A DNA stretch of 64,000 nt from Candidatus Eiseniibacteriota bacterium (GCA_041483195.1 JBGPFC010000022.1:1-64000); one strand, 5' to 3'. Positions 15,259 to 27,752 are shown, counted from the first letter of the stretch. Made by a program: numbers and translations. The notes: a model not told the origin generated them from the sequence alone.

Positions 15259-15885
15259 ATGCATCCCCGTGCAATGGATGAAGCGCCCTTCGAAACTCGC
15301 GCGATTCTGGCTTGCCTCGGGGTTCCGTCCCGTTTTCGGATCGCTCACTCGCTGCTCTCCGCCGAGCGCTGCGTGAGCGATCTCGCCGCGGACATCGGAC
15401 TCTCGCAGTCCTGCACCACCCGACACCTGCAGGCACTGCAGCGCGAGGGCCTGGTGTGCGGCGCGCGCGCCGGCAAGCGGGTGGTGTTTCGCCTCTGCCT
15501 CGATCGGCCGCACGTCCGCCATTTGCTGTCGTGGGTGACGGGCCAGATATCGAACGCCGCCGCCGTTCATTCCGAGGGTGCTCGCCCTCGAGATCGCGCG
15601 GCGCGTGGGACCCGAGCCCGGCCTGCGAACCCGCGCCCACCTTCGGCGGCCGGCGACCGCCCCGGAACACGGCGCCATCTCGGCCCACCCTACTCGCAAG
15701 AGTCGGCGCGCCAACCGAACCCGCCGCGCGTCGATGGACCAGGCCAGACATCGGACGGCGCTCAGCAGCTGGCGCCGGCGACCGACATGTTTCCCGTCGC
15801 GGGGTCGCCGAGCGACGCCGCCCCGCCGCTTGGCGCCGCGCGCGTCGCGCCTCGGGCGAACGATCTCGAGGACTGGCTCCTGTGA
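15259..15885 (+). CDS. ArsR/SmtB family regulator with long disordered C-terminal tail (start may be 15274)
   Basis: LGVPSRFRI...CVSDLAADIGLSQSCTTRHLQALQREGLV winged HTH. Confidence 0.75.
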   Translation: MHPRAMDEAPFETRAILACLGVPSRFRIAHSLLSAERCVSDLAADIGLSQSCTTRHLQALQREGLVCGARAGKRVVFRLCLDRPHVRHLLSWVTGQISNAAAVHSEGARPRDRAARGTRARPANPRPPSAAGDRPGTRRHLGPPYSQESARQPNPPRVDGPGQTSDGAQQLAPATDMFPVAGSPSDAAPPLGAARVAPRANDLEDWLL

Positions 15886-16928
15886 GCGAACCCAATCGTA
15901 TGCGTGTCGGTGCAATTGATCTCGGTTCGAATTCGCTTCGACTGCTGGTGGCCGACGTCTCCGCCGGGTCAGCGGACGCTGGTCAGCTGACGGTCCTGGC
16001 TCGGGCGGGTGAGGCTTGCCGTCTCGCACGGGGGCTCGAACACAGCGGGATGATCGAGGGCGAGATCGCCGAACGTGCCGGATCGATCGCGCGGGAGTTT
16101 GTCCGCCGCGCGCGCGGCCTCGGAGCCGTCAACATCATTTGCGGGGCCACGGCGGCATTGCGGAGCGCATCCAATGGCGCCGCGATCGCGGAGGCCATCG
16201 GCCATGCCTGCGGCGTCCCGGTGCGCATTCTGAGCGGAGAGGACGAGGCACGGTTGACGTACCGGGCCGTCGTGCTCGGTCTCGGGTCGGCCGCTGGCCG
16301 CAGCTCGTGCGTCGTGTTCGACATCGGAGGCGGGAGCACCGAGGTCGTGAGCGGGGTGGGTGACAGGCCCGGCCGCTGGACCAGCCTGCCCGTCGGCGCC
16401 GTCAATTTGAGCGAGCGTCACCCGCTTTCGGATCCCGCCGGGTCGGGTGAAGTCGAGATCCTGCGCGATGAGCTTCGAGAGTTAATTATGCATAAGTGTG
16501 CATACATGCCGTCGCGTGCGCCGCTGTTCGCCGGGGTCGGCGGGACCGTCACCCTCCTGGCCGCGCTGGCGACCGGGCTCACGACCTACGACCCAGCGCT
16601 CCTCGAGGGCAGGAACATCGACGGACCGCGGCTCGCGGGACTGATCCAGCGCCTGCTCGATTCGAGCCACCAGGAGCGTCTCGGCTGGCCCGTCATGGGA
16701 GAGGGGCGCGCCGACATCGTGGTGGCCGGGGCCATCATGGTCGGAATGCTGGCCGAGCGCTTCCCATCGAACGGCCTGGTCTGCTCGACCCAGGGCCTCC
16801 GGTATGGCCTCGTGCGTCTCGCGGCGGAAGAAGCCCTCGAGCGCAGGGGAGCGGAAGCCCGCCGAGCCGGCGGGGCTCCAAACCCGCTCGATGTATTCGA
16901 GCCCGGCGGGGACCTCGGGCCAGCCTGA
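15882..16928 (+). CDS. ppx: Ppx/GppA family phosphatase
   Basis: AIDLGSNSLRL, ATAALRSASN, LSGEDEA, DIGGGSTE, GRADIV, GLRYG. Confidence 0.93.
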   Translation: MSEPNRMRVGAIDLGSNSLRLLVADVSAGSADAGQLTVLARAGEACRLARGLEHSGMIEGEIAERAGSIAREFVRRARGLGAVNIICGATAALRSASNGAAIAEAIGHACGVPVRILSGEDEARLTYRAVVLGLGSAAGRSSCVVFDIGGGSTEVVSGVGDRPGRWTSLPVGAVNLSERHPLSDPAGSGEVEILRDELRELIMHKCAYMPSRAPLFAGVGGTVTLLAALATGLTTYDPALLEGRNIDGPRLAGLIQRLLDSSHQERLGWPVMGEGRADIVVAGAIMVGMLAERFPSNGLVCSTQGLRYGLVRLAAEEALERRGAEARRAGGAPNPLDVFEPGGDLGPA

Positions 16929-17423: not shown

Positions 17424-17542
17424 CCGAACGCTTCATCCGAAGGGCCATCGTCGCAAGGCTTGAGATTTCGAATCGCTTTCAGCGCTCCGGACCGAACCGC
17501 CGGAGCGCTCAACCGGGCGTCGAAAACCGAGGGTTCGGAAAA

Positions 17543-20500
17543 GTGCAGCGAGCGATCCCCCCCGATCTGTCTCATGCTCACCTCTCCGCTCAAGAGGGAG
17601 CGCTGCAGTATGAAGCGATCGGTGATTTGCACCTGGCCGCCGACAACTTCTCGGGAGCCGTCGATGCCTACTCGGCGGCGCTGCGAGAGTTGGGCCCCGA
17701 GGCGCCCCGCGAGCGTTGTCGGCTCCTGCTGAGGGTCGCGGAAGCCCAGATCCATCGTGGCGATTATGAGGCGGCGACCGGCCGGCTCCGCGAAGCCCGG
17801 GGCACGGCGAGGCTGCTCGGCGATTCGCGCGTTCTCGCCGCCGTCGCCGCCCGGTTCGCGGACGCGCTCACCGAACTCGGCCAGTACCGCCGGGGCCGGC
17901 GTTACGCGCTCTACGCCTATCGCGTCCTTCGCGACACGGATGAGCACCGTACCGTCGGGCAGGTCGGCGTGCGGCTCGGGACCTGCTGCGCGAGGTTGGG
18001 TCGCGTCGCGGAGGCCATCGAATGGCTCCAGAATGCCGCCGCCACATTCCGCCGGATCGACTACATCGATGGACTGGTCACGGCGCTCAACAACCTGGGC
18101 CTCGTCTACAAGAACCTGCGTGACTGGCGCGAGGCCACCCGCTTCCTCGAGCAGGCGCTGCGCCTGGACGAACGAGCGGGACTCTACGCGCGGATGCGCG
18201 GGCACAATCAGAATCTCGGCCTGATCCGCTACCGCCTCGGGCAGTGGGACCTGGCCGAAGAGAATTTCCGCCAGTCGCTCAAGATCGGTCGCGAGACCGG
18301 GCACCTGCAGGGTGAAGCCGCCGCGTTGCTCGCGCTGGGCATGCTCTGCCGCCGCCGCCGCCAGTTCGACCGCGCCGATGAGCATTTCCGCCGGGCGATG
18401 GCGCTCTCGACCCAGGTGGGAGCGCAGCGCGAGACGTTGCTCGCTCGCGAGTTCCTGGCGGAGGTCGAGCTCGACCGCGGAAACGGGGCGGGCGCGCTGG
18501 CGCTGCTCGAGGCCGCTCTCGATGACGCGCGCCAGATGGCGCCACAGGGCGACATGGTGGCCGAGCTCGAGACCCGCACCGGCATGGCGCTGCTTCAGCT
18601 CGGTCGCGCCGATGAGGCGCAGCGGCACCTGCTGAATGGCTCGACCCTGGCCGAGCAGATCGGGGACCGGATCGAGCAGGCGATCGCGGAGCGCGCGCTC
18701 GCGCGGCTCGACGCGATGCGCGGAAACGTCCCGGGGCTCGAGGCGAGGCTGAGAGTCGCGACGCAGTGCTTCGACGAACTCGGCGAGGTCTACGAGCTCG
18801 CGGTCTCCCTGCTGGCGTGGAGCGAGTACCTGTTCCTGCTGCCATCCAGCGCGCGGCTGCGCATGGAGCTGGATCCGATCACCGACGCGACCCGGCGCGC
18901 GTGCACGCTGTTCCGCCAGCTGGGGGTGTCGCCGCTCGCGGCGGAGGCGATGCTCAATCTCTCGCGACTCGAAGCGGAGCGCGAGCATTACGATCAGGCG
19001 CTCTCGATTCTCGAGCAGGCCGAACGCTGGCTCGACGAATCGGACGACCCCGAGACTCGCGATCGCGCAGAGGCGCTGCGCCGTGATCTCGAGCGCCAGT
19101 ACGTCGCGGTTTCGCTGTCGACCTGCAACGAATTCCGCGCCCTCGAGGAGGCCAACCGCCTGTTCCGCGAGACCTCCGACATGGACGGCGTGCTGAGCCA
19201 GGCCGTTCGGCTCGCCGTCGAGCACGCGGGTGGCGACCGGGGCTTCGTCGCGTTCACAGGGGGCGGGAGCCGCCTCGACGTGGTTGCGCAGCATGGGCTC
19301 GGCCGTGACCGTGCGCGCCGCATCCTCAAGGTGATCGAGGGGATCTTCGGAACTCGCATCGCCGAGAGCGGCCCGCTGTTCTCCAGCCGCGTCACGGCGG
19401 ATCCACGCTTCCACGCCGCGGTGGTCGACGCGCTCGAGGGCGTGGGATCGCTGGTGAGCGTCCCGCTGAACTTCCCGTCGCAGTCGATGGGGCTCGTCTA
19501 CGTCGACCGTCTGAACGACAACCTGCTCGGCGCGTTCAAACAACGCGAGCTGAATCTGCTCGCGGTGCTCGCCAACAGCGCGGCGGTCGCGATCGTCGAA
19601 GCGCAACGCTCGCTGCTCCTGCAGGAGAACAAGCAGCTGCGGGACAAGCTCCGGCCGGCGCCGGGCTCCGAGCGCGTGATCTCCCAGTCGCGCGAGATGA
19701 CGAGCGTCATGAGCCTGCTCGGTAAGGTCGGGGACAGCCAGGCCACCGTGCTGTTCATCGGCGAGACCGGGACCGGGAAAGGCCTGCTCGCCCAGGTCGT
19801 TCACGAAATCTCCAACCGGCGGGACCGGTCGTTCGTCCAGGTGAACTGCGCGGCGCTCCCCGAGCAGCTGCTCGAGAGCGAGCTGTTCGGCTACATGCAC
19901 GGGGCGTTCACCGGCGCGACGCGGGACAAGGCGGGACTTTTCGAGGAGGCGGAGGGCGGCACCATCTTCCTCGACGAGATCGAGAAGGTTCCCGAGAGCG
20001 TCCAGGCGAAGCTGCTTCACGTGCTCGACCGCGGCGAGATCCGCCCGGTGGGCGCGACCCGCAGCAAGCGCGTGGACGCGCGCGTCATCTGCGCCACCGG
20101 ATGCGACCTGCGCGAGCGCATCAAGGCCGGACGATTCCTCGAAGACCTGTACTACCGGCTCAACGACATCACCGTGCGGGTTCCCGCGCTGCGCGAGCGG
20201 CGCGAGGACATTCCGGTGCTCGCCCAGCATTTTCTCGCGCTCTACTCGCGGCAGATGGAGAAGACGGTGCGCGGCTTCTCGCCCGCCGTGGTGCAGGCAT
20301 TCCTGGTGCACCCGTGGCGCGGAAACGTCCGCGAGCTGGAGAAGACCGTGAAGCGCATGCTGGTCCTCGCTGACGATGGCGACACGCTGGATCTCGATCT
20401 GCTGCCGCCCGAGATGCGCGAGACGGTGGGCGGCGCCGCCGAGAAGCCGAACGGCCGATCGCTGCGCTCGAACGTGTCGCAGCTCGAGCGGCGAATGATC

Positions 20501-20623
20501 GCCGACGCGCTCGAACGCTTCCGATGGAACAAGGCGCGAACCGCCCGGGAACTCGGCCTCAGCTATCCCACCCTCCTGAGCAAGATCCGATCGCTCGAGA
20601 TCGAACGGCGCAAGAAGACCTGA
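17543..20623 (+). CDS. TPR-GAF-AAA+-HTH sigma54 enhancer-binding protein lacking a receiver domain
   Basis: ~500 aa TPR (ALNNLGLVY, NQNLGLIRY), GAF (MGLVYVD), GETGTGKG, ESELFGYMHGAFTGA, FLDEI, HTH. Confidence 0.93.
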   Translation: MQRAIPPDLSHAHLSAQEGALQYEAIGDLHLAADNFSGAVDAYSAALRELGPEAPRERCRLLLRVAEAQIHRGDYEAATGRLREARGTARLLGDSRVLAAVAARFADALTELGQYRRGRRYALYAYRVLRDTDEHRTVGQVGVRLGTCCARLGRVAEAIEWLQNAAATFRRIDYIDGLVTALNNLGLVYKNLRDWREATRFLEQALRLDERAGLYARMRGHNQNLGLIRYRLGQWDLAEENFRQSLKIGRETGHLQGEAAALLALGMLCRRRRQFDRADEHFRRAMALSTQVGAQRETLLAREFLAEVELDRGNGAGALALLEAALDDARQMAPQGDMVAELETRTGMALLQLGRADEAQRHLLNGSTLAEQIGDRIEQAIAERALARLDAMRGNVPGLEARLRVATQCFDELGEVYELAVSLLAWSEYLFLLPSSARLRMELDPITDATRRACTLFRQLGVSPLAAEAMLNLSRLEAEREHYDQALSILEQAERWLDESDDPETRDRAEALRRDLERQYVAVSLSTCNEFRALEEANRLFRETSDMDGVLSQAVRLAVEHAGGDRGFVAFTGGGSRLDVVAQHGLGRDRARRILKVIEGIFGTRIAESGPLFSSRVTADPRFHAAVVDALEGVGSLVSVPLNFPSQSMGLVYVDRLNDNLLGAFKQRELNLLAVLANSAAVAIVEAQRSLLLQENKQLRDKLRPAPGSERVISQSREMTSVMSLLGKVGDSQATVLFIGETGTGKGLLAQVVHEISNRRDRSFVQVNCAALPEQLLESELFGYMHGAFTGATRDKAGLFEEAEGGTIFLDEIEKVPESVQAKLLHVLDRGEIRPVGATRSKRVDARVICATGCDLRERIKAGRFLEDLYYRLNDITVRVPALRERREDIPVLAQHFLALYSRQMEKTVRGFSPAVVQAFLVHPWRGNVRELEKTVKRMLVLADDGDTLDLDLLPPEMRETVGGAAEKPNGRSLRSNVSQLERRMIADALERFRWNKARTARELGLSYPTLLSKIRSLEIERRKKT

Positions 20624-20675
20624 ACTGGCGCCGCGCTTGATAGTTCGCTTGTAAAATACTTTGCTAGGAAAGCCC

Positions 20676-20715
20676 GCGCCGTTTCGGCACTTAGCCGAAG
20701 CGGCGCAAGTCTTTT
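20676..20715 (+). terminator. Hairpin/probable terminator after activator gene
   Basis: GCGCCGTTTCGGC-ACTTA-GCCGAAGCGGCGC then AAGTCTTTT. Confidence 0.6.
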
Positions 20716-20838
20716 ATATTTTGTTCCGAGTTCGTCCCGTGAATCCGTCCTCTCGCGTCCCGCCACCTCGAGCTTCGAGATCCAGTAATCCGTTGCCATC
20801 CAACCCGCTGCCGAGAAATCACGATGTCGGGCCCTCGC

Positions 20839-20854
20839 TGGCACGGAGGGTGCT
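20839..20854 (+). promoter_or_regulatory. Sigma54 -24/-12 promoter upstream of candidate ncRNA
   Basis: TGGCACGGAGGGTGCT, GG-N10-GC. Confidence 0.7.
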
Positions 20855-20860
20855 GTAACC

Positions 20861-21201
20861 AGGTCTTCGGAGGGGGGGGACCTCCAACGTCCAGCAGTTC
20901 GCTGTTGGACCACTTCTGGGCTAGCCGGTGCAGTGAGGGTTCGGTCGAGGGTACGAGCCCCAGTCAAACGACAACGCACCGTCCTTCACGACCGGCTAGC
21001 TTGGAGTGCCGAACGCCAGACTTCATTCCCGGGAACACGTCCGAGCGACCGCCGACCCGCCAGCTACGGAGTGTCGAGCGGCACGCGCATTCGGGACCGA
21101 TCCCGGATCATCAGGACACCGGTCGATTCGCGTCACGGGCCAGCACTGGGGGATGTCCGGGCTTGTGGTCGCGGCAGTGCAGACCGGTGTCCTGATCTTT
21201 T
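20861..21201 (+). ncRNA. Candidate structured non-coding RNA (~340 nt), family not recognised
   Basis: Stems 20889-20910 (UUCG loop), 20911-20929/20991-21008, 21091-21106, 21110-21124/21182-21196 then CTTTT; many G-U pairs on + strand; no convincing ORF. Confidence 0.62.
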
Positions 21202-21355
21202 CCCCGGGTGTGGCGCCTCACGCACACCTGCGACGGCCCCGCACACTCTCCGCGAACGAACCGCGACCGCGGGGCCATCTCAACCGTCTATCTTCCGTGT
21301 TGCCAGCGCGAAGGTTAGGGACGGACTCCCGGGGTCCGATCGCCACCGCGACGCG

Positions 21356-21370
21356 TGGCACGTCGGTTGC
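21356..21370 (+). promoter_or_regulatory. Sigma54 -24/-12 promoter for the 21419-25141 operon
   Basis: TGGCACGTCGGTTGC matches the TGGCACG-N4-TTGC consensus. Confidence 0.8.
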
Positions 21371-21418
21371 CCTCTGTAACTCCCGACGCCATCGTGAGGC
21401 CACGCACGGGAGGACGAC

Positions 21419-22246
21419 ATGTTCAGGCACTGGATGACTGCGGTGACGGCGGTCGTGCTGATCGCCGGCTGCGACGAGGAAACGACCCGTCCTCGCGACG
21501 TGATCCCGCCCACGCCTCCGCGCGGCGTATACAGCGTCACCGGCGACCGGCGCGTGGACATCCACTGGCTCGCCAACACCGAAGGCGATGTGGCCGGTTA
21601 CAAGGTGTTCGAGGCGCCATGCGCGAGCGGTCAGAGTTGCCCTTACAAGCTGGTCGGAGTGACGGCCGGAACCTCTTTCGGCGTGACCGGCCTCGCGAAT
21701 GGGGCCACCCGCTACTTCGCCGTCGCCGCGTACGATCGCGCCGGCAACGAGAGCGCGCCATCGCTCGAGGACGTTTACGATACCCCGCGTCCGGCGGGCT
21801 TTGGCCTCGCGCTCGCGGGGTTCGGAGCTTCGCCCGCGACCAGCGGGTACGATTTCTCGGCATTCGTGGTGCGCCCCTACGACAATCAGAACGCCGACAT
21901 CTTTTTCGGCTACGGCGGCTCCATCTACCAGATGTTCGCGGCGTTCGACGACGTCCTCATCCAGGATGCCGGCTACACGCACAGCCTGGATGAAGTAGAC
22001 TTCGCCCCGACCGCCGGATGGTCCGCGAATGGCACGGTCGAGCTCATCGAAGGCCACAGCTACGTGGCGTGGATGACCCTCGACAATCACTTCGCCAAGT
22101 TCCGCGTCGTCTCGCTGACGCCGGCGCCGGCGCGAGTCGTCATCGACTGGGCGTACCAGGTGGATGCCGGAAACCGCGAGCTCGTGGCGCGCCCCGCCGC
22201 GCTCGAAGGCGGCCGGGTGCGCAGGCCGGTCGTATGGCTGCGCTGA
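21419..22246 (+). CDS. Lipoprotein with fibronectin type III domain
   Basis: LIAG-C lipobox; DVAGYKVF and YFAVAAYDRAGNES FN3 signature; GGAGG RBS. Confidence 0.82.
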   Translation: MFRHWMTAVTAVVLIAGCDEETTRPRDVIPPTPPRGVYSVTGDRRVDIHWLANTEGDVAGYKVFEAPCASGQSCPYKLVGVTAGTSFGVTGLANGATRYFAVAAYDRAGNESAPSLEDVYDTPRPAGFGLALAGFGASPATSGYDFSAFVVRPYDNQNADIFFGYGGSIYQMFAAFDDVLIQDAGYTHSLDEVDFAPTAGWSANGTVELIEGHSYVAWMTLDNHFAKFRVVSLTPAPARVVIDWAYQVDAGNRELVARPAALEGGRVRRPVVWLR

Positions 22247-22255
22247 AAGGACGCG

Positions 22256-22777
22256 ATGGGACACTGGACCCGATGGGTCGGAATCGTGGCGGCGCTGGTC
22301 GCCGTTTCCGGCTGCATGGCGGGGTACCGGGCGACGACCGTGTCCGCGCGATACACCGCATCGAGTCGGCCTCACGCGAGCTATTACTGCTATGATTGCC
22401 ATGGCGATCGGTTCTTCGATCCCTACTATGACTGGTGCGCGTACTATGGCTTCCAGTACGCGTGGTCGCGGCACCCGGAGGTGGTCGGGCTCTACCGCGA
22501 GCGCTACCTGAGGATCAAGGAGCGCCACCCGGAGTACGGCCGATATCGTTACTCGGCGGACTACCGCGAGACCCGCCGCTATCGCGAGCCCATGGACTAC
22601 GAGGCATGGCGCCGCGCCTCGCGGAACGGGCCCGGAGGCGAAACGCGATCGGTGGAGCGTCCGAAATCGAGGGAGAAGAGTCACGACGACGCGGGTACAC
22701 AGCAGAAGCCCAAGGGCCGCGAGCGCAAGGAACCACGCGACCGGAAGTCGCGCGACTCCCTGCGGGAGGGAGCATGA
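22256..22777 (+). CDS. Tyr-rich lipoprotein with CxxCH motif
   Basis: VSG-C lipobox; YYCYDCHG...FDPYYDWC; charged tail. Confidence 0.7.
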   Translation: MGHWTRWVGIVAALVAVSGCMAGYRATTVSARYTASSRPHASYYCYDCHGDRFFDPYYDWCAYYGFQYAWSRHPEVVGLYRERYLRIKERHPEYGRYRYSADYRETRRYREPMDYEAWRRASRNGPGGETRSVERPKSREKSHDDAGTQQKPKGRERKEPRDRKSRDSLREGA

Positions 22778-22778
22778 G

Positions 22779-24188
22779 ATGGAACACCAACGGATGAAGT
22801 GGAGCCTCGCGCCGTTGCTCGCGCTGGCATTGCTGCCGGGCGCGGCGCTCGCCCGCGGGTTCGCGGTCGACGTCTGGACCGACCGCGGGAGCGATGCCGT
22901 GTACCAGCCGGGCGACGCGATGCAGGTCAAGGTGCGCGCGTCGGATGACGCGTACGTGATGGTCTACGAGATCGACGCCGAAGGATCCGTGCACGTGCTC
23001 TACCCGTACCAGGGCCGCAGCGGGTTCATGGATGGACGGCACACCTATCGCGTCCCCTCCGATGATGCCGACGTGTCGCTCGTCGTGCAGACCTCGGTCG
23101 GGCAGGCCTACCTGGTCGCGCTTGCATCGCGCGATCCGTTCGGACCGTTGCCATGGTACCTGCGCCCCTACAACGCGCAGGCGGAGGGCGTCGGCTACGA
23201 GGGCAAGCCGGACGAAGAAGACGGCGTGACCGCCGAGGGCCGCATCGTCGGCGATCCGTTTGTCGCGATGGAGCGCATCCGCCGCCGGGTGCTGAAGGAT
23301 CCCGACAGTCCCACCGAGTTCGCGACGGCGTACACCTCGTACTACGTGCAGCACGAGGTGCGCTATCCGCGGTACCTCTGCTACGACTGCCATCGTCCCG
23401 GCCAGTGGGCCTGGTGGGACGGTTTCGACCCGTACTACGCCCACTGCAGCATGATCGACTTCCGCGTGAACTGGTCCTGGGCATGGGGGCCCAGCTACTG
23501 GTTCGGTCGCGTGCCGTACTTCGTGTACGTGTACCGCACCAACTGCCCCCCGCGCTATTGGCGCTACCGCGACCAGGGCATCTGGTATTCGTCGTGGGAC
23601 GGCTGGTCGCGCTGGTGTGACGTATGGGGCACGCCTTCCCTCACGCGCTACAAGTCGCCGCCGCCGCCTGGATACAATCCGCCCACCAAGTTCGGTCCAC
23701 GCACGACCTGGGGCCCGGCTCAGCCCACGCCGCCGGGATTCCTCGTCACCGACATGCGAAAGCGCGAGAGCATGCATCCCGATCCTCCGATCGGCCGCAA
23801 TCACGAGGGCGGCAACGCGGACGACCGGTTCGACGGCGGACTCAGGAAGTGGGGTACGGGACGAGCGCCCTCGGTCGCGCCGCGGGACGAAGGTGAAGGG
23901 GAACGGACCGGACGGGGCGTCTCGCGCCCCTCCGTCGAGCGGACTCCGATGCCCAGCGCCCCGCCGCGGGATGAGTCGGCGCCCCGCGTCGAGCCGCGTC
24001 GGGAGGAGCGTCCCACCCCTCGTCCCGCGGCGCCGCGCGAGGAAAAGCCCGCGCCGAGAGCGGAGCCACGGCGCGAGGAGCGTCCCGCTCCCAAGGCGGA
24101 GCCGGCGCGTGACGAGCGTCGTCCCGAGCCCGCGCAGAAACCGCGCGAGGAAGGTCCGGTGCGTGGTGGCCGTCGGGGCGGCGGTTGA
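22779..24188 (+). CDS. Secreted DUF4384-like protein with CxxCH motif, Trp/Tyr-rich region and Pro/Arg/Glu tail
   Basis: VDVWTDRG...YQPGD...DAYVMVYEIDAEGSVHVLYP; YLCYDCH...FDPYYAHC; EPRREERP repeats. Confidence 0.75.
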   Translation: MEHQRMKWSLAPLLALALLPGAALARGFAVDVWTDRGSDAVYQPGDAMQVKVRASDDAYVMVYEIDAEGSVHVLYPYQGRSGFMDGRHTYRVPSDDADVSLVVQTSVGQAYLVALASRDPFGPLPWYLRPYNAQAEGVGYEGKPDEEDGVTAEGRIVGDPFVAMERIRRRVLKDPDSPTEFATAYTSYYVQHEVRYPRYLCYDCHRPGQWAWWDGFDPYYAHCSMIDFRVNWSWAWGPSYWFGRVPYFVYVYRTNCPPRYWRYRDQGIWYSSWDGWSRWCDVWGTPSLTRYKSPPPPGYNPPTKFGPRTTWGPAQPTPPGFLVTDMRKRESMHPDPPIGRNHEGGNADDRFDGGLRKWGTGRAPSVAPRDEGEGERTGRGVSRPSVERTPMPSAPPRDESAPRVEPRREERPTPRPAAPREEKPAPRAEPRREERPAPKAEPARDERRPEPAQKPREEGPVRGGRRGGG

Positions 24189-25141
24189 TCGCACCCGGCC
24201 CGAATCGTAGCGGCGAGCGACGGGGCACACGCGCGGCTTCAGTCGCGCTTGTGCTCGTCGCGTTCGCGTGCATTGCGGGCGTGCGCTTCGCCCACGCCGG
24301 CCCCGCGGGCTTCGCCTTCCTCGAGATCCCCGCGGGCGCGCGCGCGTCGGCCATGGGGGGCGCGTACGCCTCGATCGCCACGGGCGTCGAGGCGGCGTTC
24401 TGGAACCCGGCCGGTCTCGATGCGGCGCGCGGCACGCAGGTGACCGCGAGCCACTTCGAGCTCTACCAGAACTTTCGCAATGATCAATTCGCGATCGCCG
24501 GCCACCTGCTCGGCGGCGGCGTCGCGGCGTCGATGCGCGCGCTCTACTCGGAGCCCATCGAGGAACGCGACGAGCTCGGCAACCTGACCGGAAGCTTCGG
24601 CGGGCACGATCTCGAATTCGCGCTGGGGTACGGAACCATGGTCGCCGCCGGCTTGCGGGCCGGAGGAACGGTGCAGACGGTTCGCGAGCGCATCGCCAAT
24701 CTCGCCGCGACCACCTACTCGATGGGCCTAGGCGTCACCTGGGACCCGGAATTCCTCTCGGGATCCCGGTGGAGCCTGAGCGCGCACAACCTCGGATCGT
24801 CGGCGGCCTACCCCATCGACGGCGCAGGCCCGGTGGATCTTCCGAGCGCGGTCCAGGGCGGATTCTCCTACGGGCGGGTGCTGGCGCCGGGCCTCGATCT
24901 GCGCGGAGCGGTCGAGACGCGCGTCACGCGCGGCCGCAGCGGCGTCGCCATGATCGGGGGCGAGCTCTCGAGTCCGGCGGGGGCCGCGCTGCGCCTCGGA
25001 TTCCGGGTCAACGACAGCTCGACCAGCTTCAGCGTAGGCGCCGGTTACGCGAGGAACGTCTTGCGCCTCGACTACGCCTTCGTGCCGTCACTTCTCGATC
25101 TGGGCGACACGCACCGCGTTTCGTTCACGACCCAGTTCTGA
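24185..25141 (+). CDS. PorV/PorQ-like outer-membrane barrel protein
   Basis: FLEIPAGARASAMGGA, AFWNPAGL, LDYAFVP...LGDTHRVSF; ends in F. Confidence 0.8.
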   Translation: MIAPGPNRSGERRGTRAASVALVLVAFACIAGVRFAHAGPAGFAFLEIPAGARASAMGGAYASIATGVEAAFWNPAGLDAARGTQVTASHFELYQNFRNDQFAIAGHLLGGGVAASMRALYSEPIEERDELGNLTGSFGGHDLEFALGYGTMVAAGLRAGGTVQTVRERIANLAATTYSMGLGVTWDPEFLSGSRWSLSAHNLGSSAAYPIDGAGPVDLPSAVQGGFSYGRVLAPGLDLRGAVETRVTRGRSGVAMIGGELSSPAGAALRLGFRVNDSSTSFSVGAGYARNVLRLDYAFVPSLLDLGDTHRVSFTTQF

Positions 25142-25160
25142 CGGGCGCCGCCCGGGCGAT

Positions 25161-25895
25161 TCAGCATTCGGGCCACACCTCGAGCCGCAGCTTCCCATGT
25201 TCGAGCACGACGTAAGTGAAATTGCGAATCCAGTCGCCGAGCACGAAAAACTCGCGACCATTCTCGCGGCGCTCGAAGGCGTGATGGAAGTGCCCGATCA
25301 TCACGGCGTCGTAGCCGGCGGCGAACCGCGGGGCGGCGATCTCGCGCCACAGCCGCTCGCCCTCGAGCGGACGGCTGTCGCGCGAGCCGCGCGAGCGATT
25401 CGATACCCAGCGGGCGAGCGGGAATCCGAGGTCGGGATGAAGCAGCCCGTAGAGGGCGATGCTCGCGGGGTGGCGGATGACCTTCTTCATCAACCGGTAT
25501 CCGAGATCGCCGCCGGTGAGCCCGTCACCGTGGTGCAGCCAGAGCTTCCGGCCCTGGCGTTCGAGGGAAAGCGCGCCGTGCTCGGTCGCGATGCCGAGGG
25601 ATTCCTTCATGAAGCGACCCAACCAAAAGTCGTGATTGCCGTTCAAATACGTGATCGGGAGGCCGGACTCCCGGAGCCCGCGCAGGACCGAGAGGGTCTC
25701 GAAGAAGCGCCGCGGGATGGCGGTGCGGTACTCGAACCAGAAATCGAAGAGGTCGCCCACGATGTAGAGGGCGTCCGCGCGTCCGGGCAGCGAGTTCAAG
25801 AAGGCGTGAAGGCGCCGCAGGCGCGGCGCTTCCACCTCCGCCGCCGAGGCGCCGATGTGCGAATCGGAGAAAAAATAAACGGCGCCGTCGGACAT
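25161..25895 (-). CDS. lpxH: UDP-2,3-diacylglucosamine hydrolase
   Basis: SDSH, GDLFDFWFEY, GNHD, HGD, GHFH, LGDW metallophosphoesterase motifs. Confidence 0.88.
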   Translation of the reverse strand: MSDGAVYFFSDSHIGASAAEVEAPRLRRLHAFLNSLPGRADALYIVGDLFDFWFEYRTAIPRRFFETLSVLRGLRESGLPITYLNGNHDFWLGRFMKESLGIATEHGALSLERQGRKLWLHHGDGLTGGDLGYRLMKKVIRHPASIALYGLLHPDLGFPLARWVSNRSRGSRDSRPLEGERLWREIAAPRFAAGYDAVMIGHFHHAFERRENGREFFVLGDWIRNFTYVVLEHGKLRLEVWPEC

Positions 25896-26261
25896 GACCG
25901 GGCAGTCTATCAACCGCCCGCGCGGCCGGACAAGCCGCGCGGGGGCGTCGCGCGCGCCGCCGCGCGGCATGCCGTTTCGAACTCGGGCGCCGCGCGGCGC
26001 GCCGGCCCGCGCCGGGCCCGGAGTTCGCCGCGCCGGGCGCCGAGCGTGGTTCGATCGAGTGCGCTGCGACATCCTCAACCCGCGACGCGGGGCTCGCGAC
26101 GCCGGAGGGCGGTGCGGCCCGCACAATTGACGGACAGGTGACAGCCCGCGCTTCGCGGCCGATAACCATGAAGCGTGCCCAGATCTCGGCCCGGGACGGC
26201 GCCCCCGCCGCGGCGGCAGCCCCGATCCGAACGACGAGAGTCATACACGGAGGAAAGCGGA

Positions 26262-27752
26262 ATGAACCCGAGTCCTGTAGCCCACACCCGCCCACGCAAC
26301 TACTACCTGAGCGCCTTGCTGGTCGGATTCATCGGTCTCGCCCTCGGCCTGGGTCTGAGCGCGGGGTTCAATCTCCAGCGGGCGTCGAGGGCTGAACACG
26401 CCGCGCTCGCGGCGTTCACCTCCGGCGCCGACGTTCCCGAGAGCCCGTTCGTTCCGGTCGTCGAGCGGGCGCTGCCCGCGGTGGTCTTCATCGACGTTCG
26501 CAAGAAGGTGAGCGGCGAGGACGGACAGGATCCGCAGGACGAGCTGTTCAAGCGCTTCTTCGGCGACTCGCCGCACCGGCAGCGCACCCAGCCCACCTCG
26601 GGCTCCGGGTTCATCATCGACCACGACGGCCGCATCCTCACCAACAACCACGTGGTGCGCGACGCCAGCGACATCACCGTCACCCTCAACGACAAGCGCA
26701 CGTTCAAGGCGAAGGTCGTCGGCACCGATCCAGAGACCGACGTCGCCGTGATCAAGATCGAGGGAGACGATCTCCCGACGCTGCCGCTCGGCGACTCCGA
26801 CAAGATCCGCGTCGGCGACTGGGCGATCGCGATCGGCAACCCGCTCGGCGAGCTGCGTGGGTCGGTCACGGTCGGCATCATCAGCGCGCAGGGCCGCTCG
26901 AACCTGAACATCTGGGGCGGCACCCCCGGCTTCCAGGACTTCATTCAGACCGACGCTTCGATCAACTTCGGAAACTCGGGCGGACCGCTCTGCAACATTC
27001 GCGGCGAGGCGATCGGCATCAACACGGCGATCAATCCCAGCGGTCAGGGGATCGGATTCGCGATCCCGATCAATCTGGTCAAGCACGTGGCCGAGCAGCT
27101 GGTCGCGCACGGCGAGGTGTCCCGCGCGTGGCTCGGTGTGCAGCTGGCGGAGCTCACGCCCGAAATCGCGGAAGGCTTCGGCCTGCGCGCCGATCGCGGC
27201 GTGCTCATCCAGGAAGTGCTGAAGGATCAGCCGGCCGAGCGCGCCGGCCTGCGCCGCAACGACGTCATCGTGGAGTTCGAGGGGCAGCCGGTCTCCGATC
27301 TCCAGAAGTTCCGCCTCAAGGTGGCCGATACTCCCGCCGGGCAGAAGGTCCAGCTCGTGGTGCTGCGCGACGGCAAGCGCGTGCCGGTCACGGTGACGCT
27401 CGCGCCGCGGCAGACCAACGCGCTGGCGCAGAACACGCAGCCGACCGAGGAGGCCCCGGTCTCCGAGAAGCTCGCCGGGGTGCGGGTACGGGATCTCACC
27501 GCCGGCGAGAAATCGACGGCGAAGCTCGAGGCTGGCGTCGTGATCAGCGACGTGCTGGATGGCAGCGCGGCCGATGAAGCCGGCCTGCAGGCCGGCGACG
27601 TGATCGAGGAAGTCGGCGGCAAGCCGGTCCACTCCGTAAACGAATTCGCCGCGCAACTGAACGTGGCCAAGAAGTCCAGCAAGAAGCACGCGGTGTTCCT
27701 CGTGCGCAGGGGCGACGTCTCGAACTTCGTGCCGGTGCAGCTCGGGGAGTGA
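26262..27752 (+). CDS. degP: DegP/HtrA (Do) serine protease with two PDZ domains
   Basis: GSGFII, TNNHVV, DVAVIKI, QTDASINFGNSGGPL. Confidence 0.93.
   Translation: MNPSPVAHTRPRNYYLSALLVGFIGLALGLGLSAGFNLQRASRAEHAALAAFTSGADVPESPFVPVVERALPAVVFIDVRKKVSGEDGQDPQDELFKRFFGDSPHRQRTQPTSGSGFIIDHDGRILTNNHVVRDASDITVTLNDKRTFKAKVVGTDPETDVAVIKIEGDDLPTLPLGDSDKIRVGDWAIAIGNPLGELRGSVTVGIISAQGRSNLNIWGGTPGFQDFIQTDASINFGNSGGPLCNIRGEAIGINTAINPSGQGIGFAIPINLVKHVAEQLVAHGEVSRAWLGVQLAELTPEIAEGFGLRADRGVLIQEVLKDQPAERAGLRRNDVIVEFEGQPVSDLQKFRLKVADTPAGQKVQLVVLRDGKRVPVTVTLAPRQTNALAQNTQPTEEAPVSEKLAGVRVRDLTAGEKSTAKLEAGVVISDVLDGSAADEAGLQAGDVIEEVGGKPVHSVNEFAAQLNVAKKSSKKHAVFLVRRGDVSNFVPVQLGE

Follow-up and report, generated by a model that had tools for sequence, protein, structure and literature searches.

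A predicted sigma-54-transcribed structured RNA behind its likely activator gene in Candidatus Eisenbacteria

A recurring design in bacterial regulation places the gene of an activator beside that of its own RNA, as in the pairs CbrB/CrcZ, LuxO/Qrr and Nla19/Pxr. CrcZ is a sigma-54-dependent RNA of several hundred nucleotides (nt), encoded directly 3′ of cbrB on the same strand in all genomes of its group (PMC5113210); Qrr RNA takes part in a feedback loop in which it pairs with the translation start region of luxO and represses it (PMC2632942); and Pxr, 108 nt long and folded into three stem-loops, is encoded downstream of nla19, the gene for a sigma-54-dependent regulator, and has a sigma-54 promoter of its own (PMC5568312). 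The targets of Pxr are described as still unknown in another article (PMC11928866), so this RNA provides no mechanistic model. The sigma-54-dependent GlmY is tied to cell-envelope homeostasis and serves as a decoy for the adaptor RapZ (PMC2267818, PMC7073468). Here we describe a locus with a related layout in a 64,000-nt stretch of DNA from Candidatus Eiseniibacteriota bacterium (GCA_041483195.1 JBGPFC010000022.1:1-64000; hereafter, the window). Positions 20866-21201 of its + strand very probably constitute the gene for an uncatalogued structured non-coding RNA of about 335 nt, read from its own sigma-54 promoter.

A preliminary annotation made from the sequence of the window (the original prediction) had likened the locus to qrr1/luxO and Pxr/Nla19. 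Going by the published descriptions of those loci (PMC5568312, PMC2632942), the comparison is apt in layout. As with CrcZ and cbrB, the gene for the probable activator is immediately followed in the Eisenbacteria locus, on the same strand, by a sigma-54 RNA several hundred nt long. With Qrr/LuxO it shares a sigma-54 RNA adjoining the activator gene and, if the proposal below is right, an equal feedback logic, the pairing being only predicted here. The points of likeness with Pxr/nla19 are an RNA gene 3′ of the gene for a sigma-54 regulator, a separate sigma-54 promoter and a fold made of multiple stem-loops. The likeness to GlmY/GlrR concerns the surroundings, since the neighbouring sigma-54 operon here encodes envelope proteins, namely a PorV/PorQ family member and HtrA/DegP. 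Qrr RNAs are about 100 nt long, Hfq-dependent and multi-copy, whereas the Eisenbacteria RNA is about 335 nt long, single-copy and encoded in a genome in which Hfq was not found. It is likewise much longer than the 108-nt Pxr, to which it has no sequence relation; to GlmY no relation of sequence or structure was found. Unlike CrcZ, to which it is related neither in sequence nor by Rfam family, it lacks A-rich Hfq/Crc motifs; moreover, its activator gene is followed by a terminator-like hairpin of its own and encodes a TPR-GAF sensor instead of a two-component receiver. The layout is therefore already known from CrcZ/CbrB, Pxr/Nla19 and Qrr/LuxO; the RNA family itself is uncatalogued.

The gene preceding the RNA (17543-20623, + strand, GTG start codon) encodes a sigma-54 activator (bacterial enhancer-binding protein) in which Pfam recognizes TPR repeats, a GAF domain, the Sigma54_activat (AAA+) domain and HTH_8, a Fis-type helix-turn-helix. 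Named activators in NCBIfam matched it only below threshold. Orthologues of its N-terminal part were detected in 146 of the 151 genomes of the phylum that were sampled in this study. A sigma-54 promoter requires an enhancer-binding protein, and this TPR-GAF protein is most likely the activator of the RNA. The gap of about 800 base-pairs (bp) originally noted behind the gene does exist: it spans 20624-21418, the next credible gene beginning at 21419. The GG-N10-GC promoter that had been placed in it at 20839-20854 (P1, + strand) has the form TGGCAC-N5-GGTGCT, with GG at 20840-20841 and GC at 20852-20853. P1 is conserved in all 55 distinct loci collected from relatives (see below), where its distance from the first hairpin of the RNA differs by about one base. 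Within the 64-kb window the pattern TGGCAY-N6-TGC occurs only at 20839 and 21356, both times on the + strand, a count that is not significant taken alone as 20 of 100 shuffles give at least two. Judging from the geometry of the promoter, transcription from P1 is predicted to start near 20865-20867.

The segment 20860-21205 folds on the + strand with a minimum free energy (MFE) of -172.5 kcal/mol (z = -4.58; none of 100 shuffles as good), as against z = -2.21 for the - strand. Every helix listed in the original prediction is present in the + strand MFE structure; the list had, however, overlooked the most conserved element of all, the 5′-terminal hairpin H1 (20869-20885). H1 consists of a GGAGG/CCUCC stem and a GGGGGGA loop; it is invariant in 55/55 loci of the window's order, in the form GGAGG-G(6-7)A-CCUCC, and occurs once in the genome. 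Together with a second hairpin, H2, and a branched core, H1 makes up the 5′ domain of the RNA, the other two domains being a variable middle rod and a 3′ rod. H2 (20889-20910) is the 9-bp hairpin with a UUCG loop expected at this place; it is variable, all nine of its pairs showing changes on both sides in the model-fitted alignment described below. The core (20915-21005) comprises helices P3 (20915-20929/20991-21005), P4, P5 (20949-20960; hairpin sequence GGGUACGAGCCC) and P6 (20963-20972). P3 corresponds to the conserved part of what had been drawn as an 18-bp bulged stem (20911-20929/20991-21008). The full stem forms in the MFE structure, but its outer extension to 20911/21008 is not conserved. 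The “small hairpins” said to follow are instead a single rod (21028-21106) that varies in length and sequence, only its closing stem being kept. The 3′ rod (21110-21196) has an outer stem (21110-21124/21182-21196), an inner stem and an invariant apical loop, CUGGGGGAUG (21146-21155). Its outer stem is the 15-bp helix followed by CTTTT of the original description, and eleven of the pairs are conserved. The T-run (21197-21201) is T-richer in most relatives, and by its sequence the 3′ rod with this run is probably an intrinsic terminator forming the 3′ end of the RNA. A simple terminator scan does not list 21197-21201 because the loop of the 3′ rod is too large for the rule applied.

The genome of the window (4.17 Mb in 93 contigs, 96.8% complete) holds the region in a single copy, which means that it is not a mobile palindromic repeat, an outcome the original prediction had recognized as adverse. 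A blastn search with the region found matches in 36 of 41 related genomes, including 24/24 of the window's family, the matches forming two blocks at roughly 20867-21009 and 21105-21201. When profile searches were run with 43 activator-orthologue loci added, both blocks were recovered from 68 loci, amounting to 55 distinct sequences. These orthologous intergenic regions contain compensatory changes of the kind anticipated for a structured RNA. For the 3′ rod, we used a structure-blind MAFFT alignment of the 55 sequences and a 27-pair structure read from the alignment, RNAalifold having given a poor structure for the inner part of this domain. In this test 89.1% of cells are paired, both partners have changed in 21 of the 27 pairs and the observed values of all five measures were reached in 0 of 500 shuffles; sliding the 3′ partners by 1-3 columns leaves only 31-41% paired. 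The blind test of the 5′ domain (MAFFT, 51 sequences) gave 87.7% paired, compared with 31-47% after sliding, and a covariation score of 0.193 against 0.122 (0/500 shuffles), two of the five measures being not significant in this alignment. MAFFT misaligned the G-run of H1, and the H1 pairs were therefore omitted from the covariance model of this domain. When 56 sequences were aligned by fitting to the model, a procedure that favours the structure by construction, 91.2% of cells were paired, 26 of 44 pairs showed changes on both sides and none of 500 shuffles matched any of the measures.

The choice of strand follows from G-U pairs, to which the original prediction had already appealed. Three of them are conserved on the + strand in the model-fitted alignment (U-G in 56/56, G-U in 45/56 and U-G in 53/56 sequences), and they would be C-A mismatches on the other strand. 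In P3, furthermore, 6 of 51 sequences have a C-G pair swapped to G-C, a change that keeps the RNA pair and breaks the palindrome in the DNA.

To follow the RNA through the phylum, covariance models R1 (3′ rod) and R2 (5′ domain) were run on the 151 genomes. In the window itself they match 21108-21205 (77.5 bits) and 20867-21010 (143.3 bits), respectively. The RNA was found once per genome in 68/68 sampled genomes of the window's order. R2 matched in 59/59 genomes of family f1, 6/6 of f3 and 3/3 of f2, with one weak match among the 83 genomes of other families; R1 matched in 56/59, 6/6 and 0/3, respectively, with six weak matches elsewhere, in f5, f7, f8 and f14 (one of the six f3 genomes, G026, is unpublished; leaving it out gives 5/5 with either model). 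All the weak matches outside the order lie 250-2200 nt behind an orthologue of the activator gene and on the same strand, from which we conclude that they are diverged homologues and not noise. The RNA was found behind every activator orthologue with enough flanking DNA. The expected association with orthologous TPR-GAF activators is seen throughout the order, and in other families it involves diverged copies. The DNA behind the activator orthologue was also inspected in 20 genomes from 16 other families. An H1-like hairpin, defined by a strict pattern, is present in 13/20 of these loci, 10/20 have a sigma-54 promoter 29-30 nt 5′ of such a hairpin, and 12/20 carry the loop motif GGGGGATG. Two families, f14 and f16, have an H1 stem altered in both arms, with a loop that is still rich in G and includes GGA. 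Family f10 has a short version of the RNA, about 135 nt, without the 3′ loop motif. H1 and the 3′ rod are separated in f7 (loci L083, L084 and L088) and f8 (L080) by an open reading frame (ORF) that has the orientation of the RNA and encodes a WHD+AAA ATPase of 488-542 aa.

Neither catalogues nor reading frames provide another identity for the region. At gathering level, the only match of Rfam 15 in the whole window is a tRNA gene at 2220-2293 on the - strand, and with E-values up to 10 there is still no match inside 20839-21201. In particular, no model for Qrr, CrcZ, GlmY/GlmZ, CsrB/RsmZ, 6S, tmRNA, RNase P or SRP RNA scores at gathering threshold at the RNA; the original reader, too, had seen no tmRNA, RNase P, SRP or 6S signature. 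The statement that the region holds “no credible ORF” needs qualification, as mechanical ORFs do cross it, for instance one of 123 aa at 20824-21195. Two such ORFs have no Pfam match. The distance from H1 to the 3′ loop is spread over the three values modulo 3 (21/18/16 in the 55 loci) and a stop-free stretch over at least 90% of the element is found in only 11/55 sequences, indicating that no reading frame is kept. Lack of an Rfam match, single copy, compensatory changes, absence of a conserved ORF and adjacency to the activator gene together support the original proposal of an undescribed regulatory RNA.

How this RNA acts is a more tentative matter. We favour a mechanism of base pairing in trans with feedback on the activator, a proposal in which doubt still has the upper hand; identity and mechanism taken as one statement are nearly in balance, leaning slightly towards doubt. 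The two invariant G-rich apical loops, GGGGGGA in H1 and CUGGGGGAUG in the 3′ rod, would pair with C-runs in mRNAs. The best-conserved candidate for such a site would be in the message of the activator itself, where codons 5-7 contain a U-C7 run. This run is predicted to lie in a loop closed by a short GAUC/GAUC stem and within the initiation footprint of the ribosome. A loop-loop contact at this run would lower translation of the activator and so establish a negative feedback loop, as Qrr does on luxO.

The putative target site occupies 17554-17567 (+ strand; U and C7 run at 17556-17563, GAUC/GAUC flanks), where codons 4-8 of the activator gene read GCG AUC CCC CCC GAU, giving GAUC-C6-GAUC. 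With this U-C7 run, GGGGGGGA of H1 can form 8 bp and GGGGGAU of the 3′ loop 7 bp. An unrestricted duplex search (RNA.duplexfold) paired the entire RNA with the leader end to end, a meaningless result, and only short oligonucleotides were used for energies. The nominal duplex energies are -26.2 kcal/mol (H1) and -18.2 kcal/mol (3′ loop) before the cost of opening the hairpins, whose self-folds amount to -9.1, -4.2 and -5.8 kcal/mol. Of 38 orthologous activator genes, 30 carry this 15-mer unchanged, and the C-run is conserved at synonymous positions. In 35/38 orthologues, Pro6-Pro7 is encoded by CCC CCC, whereas CCC accounts for 32% of proline codons elsewhere in these genes; Asp8 is mostly GAU, a codon with a 22% share elsewhere. 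The share of the majority codon at codons 4-7 is 0.91-0.97, compared with a mean of 0.764. Family f3 has a C6-7 run at the same codons in 5/5 genomes although the neighbouring residues differ, and f2 has a GUC5 site some 45-50 nt 5′ of the AUG in 3/3 genomes. Farther away, a C-run is found in the non-coding sequence just 5′ of the AUG in f5 and f9, and at codons 5-6 in f13. In a control test on 17 distant genomes, three (one each from f7, f9 and f16) have perfect matches of 9-11 nt between H1 and the activator leader that none of 300 control windows reaches, f16 doing so although its H1 itself differs; in one further genome the match is reached by 4.7% of control windows. Support for pairing is therefore good inside the order and uneven outside it. 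Searches of the 96.8%-complete genome detected neither Hfq nor ProQ, proteins that a loop-loop contact would not need.

Several points weigh against this reading, in its identity part as well as in its mechanism. A search of RNA sequencing runs for the sequence found no RNA run containing the region. A soil library, labelled as transcriptomic cDNA and flagged as probably DNA, yielded 10 short contigs of relatives confined to the conserved core 20890-21063 (eight of them 81-366 nt long); such contigs cannot show ends, strand or level, and are evidence in neither direction. The relatives compared are not independent samples, and in the blind alignment of the 5′ domain 157 of 500 shuffles reach the observed number of pairs changed on both sides. 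Activation by the neighbouring protein is deduced from adjacency alone. As to pairing, the longest matches require opening of H1. The codon constancy at the candidate site is in the upper tail but not unique, 105 of 399 conserved columns reaching a constancy of at least 0.9, and the Pro-Pro pair at the C-run could have been retained for reasons lying in the protein. In 13 of the 17 distant genomes, the match of H1 to the mRNA is reached by at least 19.7% of control windows; no C-run is present at the activator in f14, f8, f12, f4, f11, f15 and two of three f7 genomes. Finally, the seed is not specific, with 88 TCCCCCCC sites and 369 C7 runs in the genome when both strands are counted.

Further mRNAs with C-runs were looked for by scanning for U-C6+ runs near starts with crude gene calls. 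Ten of the 28 candidates, chosen by eye for a short upstream in-frame extension, have mixed functions and no common theme. U-C6+ runs within about 45 nt of likely starts were noted at G000 C4:3330, C4:53949, C5:28862, C12:11833, C15:55579, C26:57559 and C43:23846; the genes at these runs encode an ECF sigma factor, MreC, an M12B protease, DnaN, glutamate dehydrogenase, an SPFH protein and Jag, and may be additional targets of the RNA. In its most extended form, the base-pairing proposal would make the RNA a phylum-wide, Hfq-free riboregulator that works by kissing of G-loops with C-runs, feeds back on its activator, controls a wider set of C-run mRNAs (ECF sigma factor, MreC, M12B protease, glutamate dehydrogenase), couples the envelope operon (PorV/PorQ, HtrA) to global translation control and, in two families, is a dual-function RNA with an AAA ATPase. 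We regard this full picture as distinctly improbable.

The same G-rich loops allow for a different function. Rather than pairing with mRNA, the RNA might sequester a protein, in the manner of CrcZ (Hfq/Crc) or CsrB/RsmZ (CsrA); one CsrA dimer or another protein would then bind its two GGA loops. We consider this unlikely. The layout agrees with it, since cbrB-crcZ (PMC5113210) likewise has a sigma-54 RNA of several hundred nt directly behind the activator gene. Both invariant loops end in GGA, and the variants of H1 in f14 keep a GGA or GGAA loop despite the changes in the stem. CsrA is encoded in the genome, FliW, Hfq and ProQ being not found, and is present in 65 of the 68 RNA-bearing genomes of the order. 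This last figure loses much of its force on finding CsrA in 132/151 genomes irrespective of model matches, and commonly where the models find no RNA. Conversely, CsrA was detected in 0/7 genomes of f7 and 0/1 of f4, yet H1 and the GGGGGAUG loop are retained at 3/3 f7 loci and at the f4 locus that were examined. Nor are GGA motifs enriched, their number being 9.73 for the entire RNA (shuffles, 9.33) and 3.02 for the variable rod (shuffles, 2.90), or 0.76 (shuffles, 0.73) in its loops; no more than two GGA-bearing loops are invariant. An Hfq/Crc sponge is disfavoured by the complete lack of A-rich AAnAAnAA motifs in 19330-22710 and by the failure to find Hfq. On this evidence the CsrA-sponge reading is weakened, though a different protein may be the partner.

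Another view of the loops is that they make contacts within the molecule or in a ribonucleoprotein, the main role of the RNA depending on its tertiary fold, whether this be the sensing of a ligand or protein, scaffolding or catalysis. P3 and P5 are near-invariant and the branched junction has invariant unpaired bases, which is more than a base-pairing RNA usually needs, and some 335 nt exceed the typical size of such small RNAs. Since the 5′ core contains CCCCAG (20957-20962), the complement of CUGGGG in the 3′ loop, a long-range contact between the two is possible. However, this pairing shows no covariation, both sides being invariant or freely varying, and the branched core is not kept outside the order: that of f10 has 28 nt compared with 66 nt in the order and is found in a version without the GGGGGAUG loop. 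The Rfam search gave no match to a riboswitch or ribozyme family. We would call a tertiary-fold RNA improbable, in about the same measure as the protein-binding one.

Very unlikely, in our estimate, is that the conserved segments are untranslated parts of an mRNA, either the leader or attenuator of the envelope operon or the leftover 5′ and 3′ untranslated regions of a gene lost in the order. The ATPase ORF that separates H1 from the GGGGGAUG rod in f7 and f8 speaks in its favour, as does the downstream operon, which is on the same strand and begins 218 nt beyond the T-run. Against this, the operon is preceded by a separate conserved sigma-54 promoter (21356), with a dyad site between RNA and promoter, the RNA ends in a conserved stem and T-run, no frame is kept in the 55 loci and the distance from H1 to the 3′ loop is merely 150-570 nt in most families. 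That the region has no RNA function at all, representing DNA palindromes (activator or repressor sites), a mobile palindromic repeat or a small protein gene, is barely conceivable: GGCTAGCC in P3 and the H1 stem are indeed palindromic as DNA and the 123-aa ORF does cross the region, but the element is single-copy, its conserved G-U pairs would turn into C-A mismatches if the opposite strand were read, the + strand folds better, the C-G to G-C swap in P3 spares the RNA pair and not the palindrome, and the frame is not conserved, both ORFs lacking a Pfam match.

Beyond the RNA, a dyad TGT-N12-ACA (21209-21226, + strand) follows directly 3′ and occurs once per locus in 45/55 loci. Its position 4 varies without a change opposite, for which reason we read it as probably a DNA site, an enhancer, and not a helix. 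Next comes a second sigma-54 promoter, P2 (21356-21370, + strand), which is conserved in relatives and precedes an operon on the same strand (21419-27752). The first gene of the operon (21419-22246, + strand) encodes a lipoprotein-like product, and further genes encode a DUF4384 protein, an outer-membrane protein of the PorV/PorQ family (110.6 bits, cut-off 90) and HtrA/DegP. The operon is probably the protein-coding target of the activator. With two sigma-54 promoters, the dyad and the operon arranged in this manner, the likely unit consists of one activator, two sigma-54 promoters, one RNA and one envelope operon.

Other features of the neighbourhood were noted in passing. A GTTGC-N3-(G/C)CAAC-like inverted repeat, conserved in relatives, lies at about 20792-20804, some 35-47 nt 5′ of P1, and by its sequence is a candidate regulator site for this promoter. 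The activator gene is followed right behind its stop codon by an AT-rich dyad (20650-20668) and then by the terminator-like hairpin and T-run mentioned above (20676-20706, + strand). The stem of this hairpin covaries, yet its ACTTAGC loop is kept, and the element could be a protein site or a 3′ untranslated element; a weak match to ctRNA_pGA1 overlapping it is sub-threshold (27.9 bits, gathering score 45). At the other end of the gene, the leader (17460-17545) is conserved at the nucleotide level. Its CGAACC could pair with GGTTCG directly 3′ of a Shine-Dalgarno-like GAGGG, so that translation of the activator may be structurally gated. A partial second copy of the activator N-terminus (residues 1-264, 86% identity) is found at a contig end (G000:C3:2-796, - strand); it carries the same leader and C-run, and either a paralogue or strain variation within the assembly may account for it. 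An exopolyphosphatase gene (Ppx/GppA family, 15312-16928) lies 5′ of the activator gene. As for the ATPase ORF of f7 and f8, its best NCBIfam match is the anti-phage protein IteA, with 87.9 bits against a cut-off of 510.

In the literature that we searched on RNA elements of Candidatus Eisenbacteria, no RNA regulator is described. This uncultured phylum now gains a clade-wide family of structured RNA with a defined promoter, a neighbouring regulator and a pairing hypothesis. The RNA family belongs in the catalogues, where it will allow correct annotation of a spacer of about 800 bp that would otherwise pass as “empty”. More generally, the locus adds an independent lineage to the recurring design in which an activator gene is accompanied by its own RNA, as in CbrB/CrcZ, LuxO/Qrr and Nla19/Pxr, and does so in a genome where neither Hfq nor ProQ was found.

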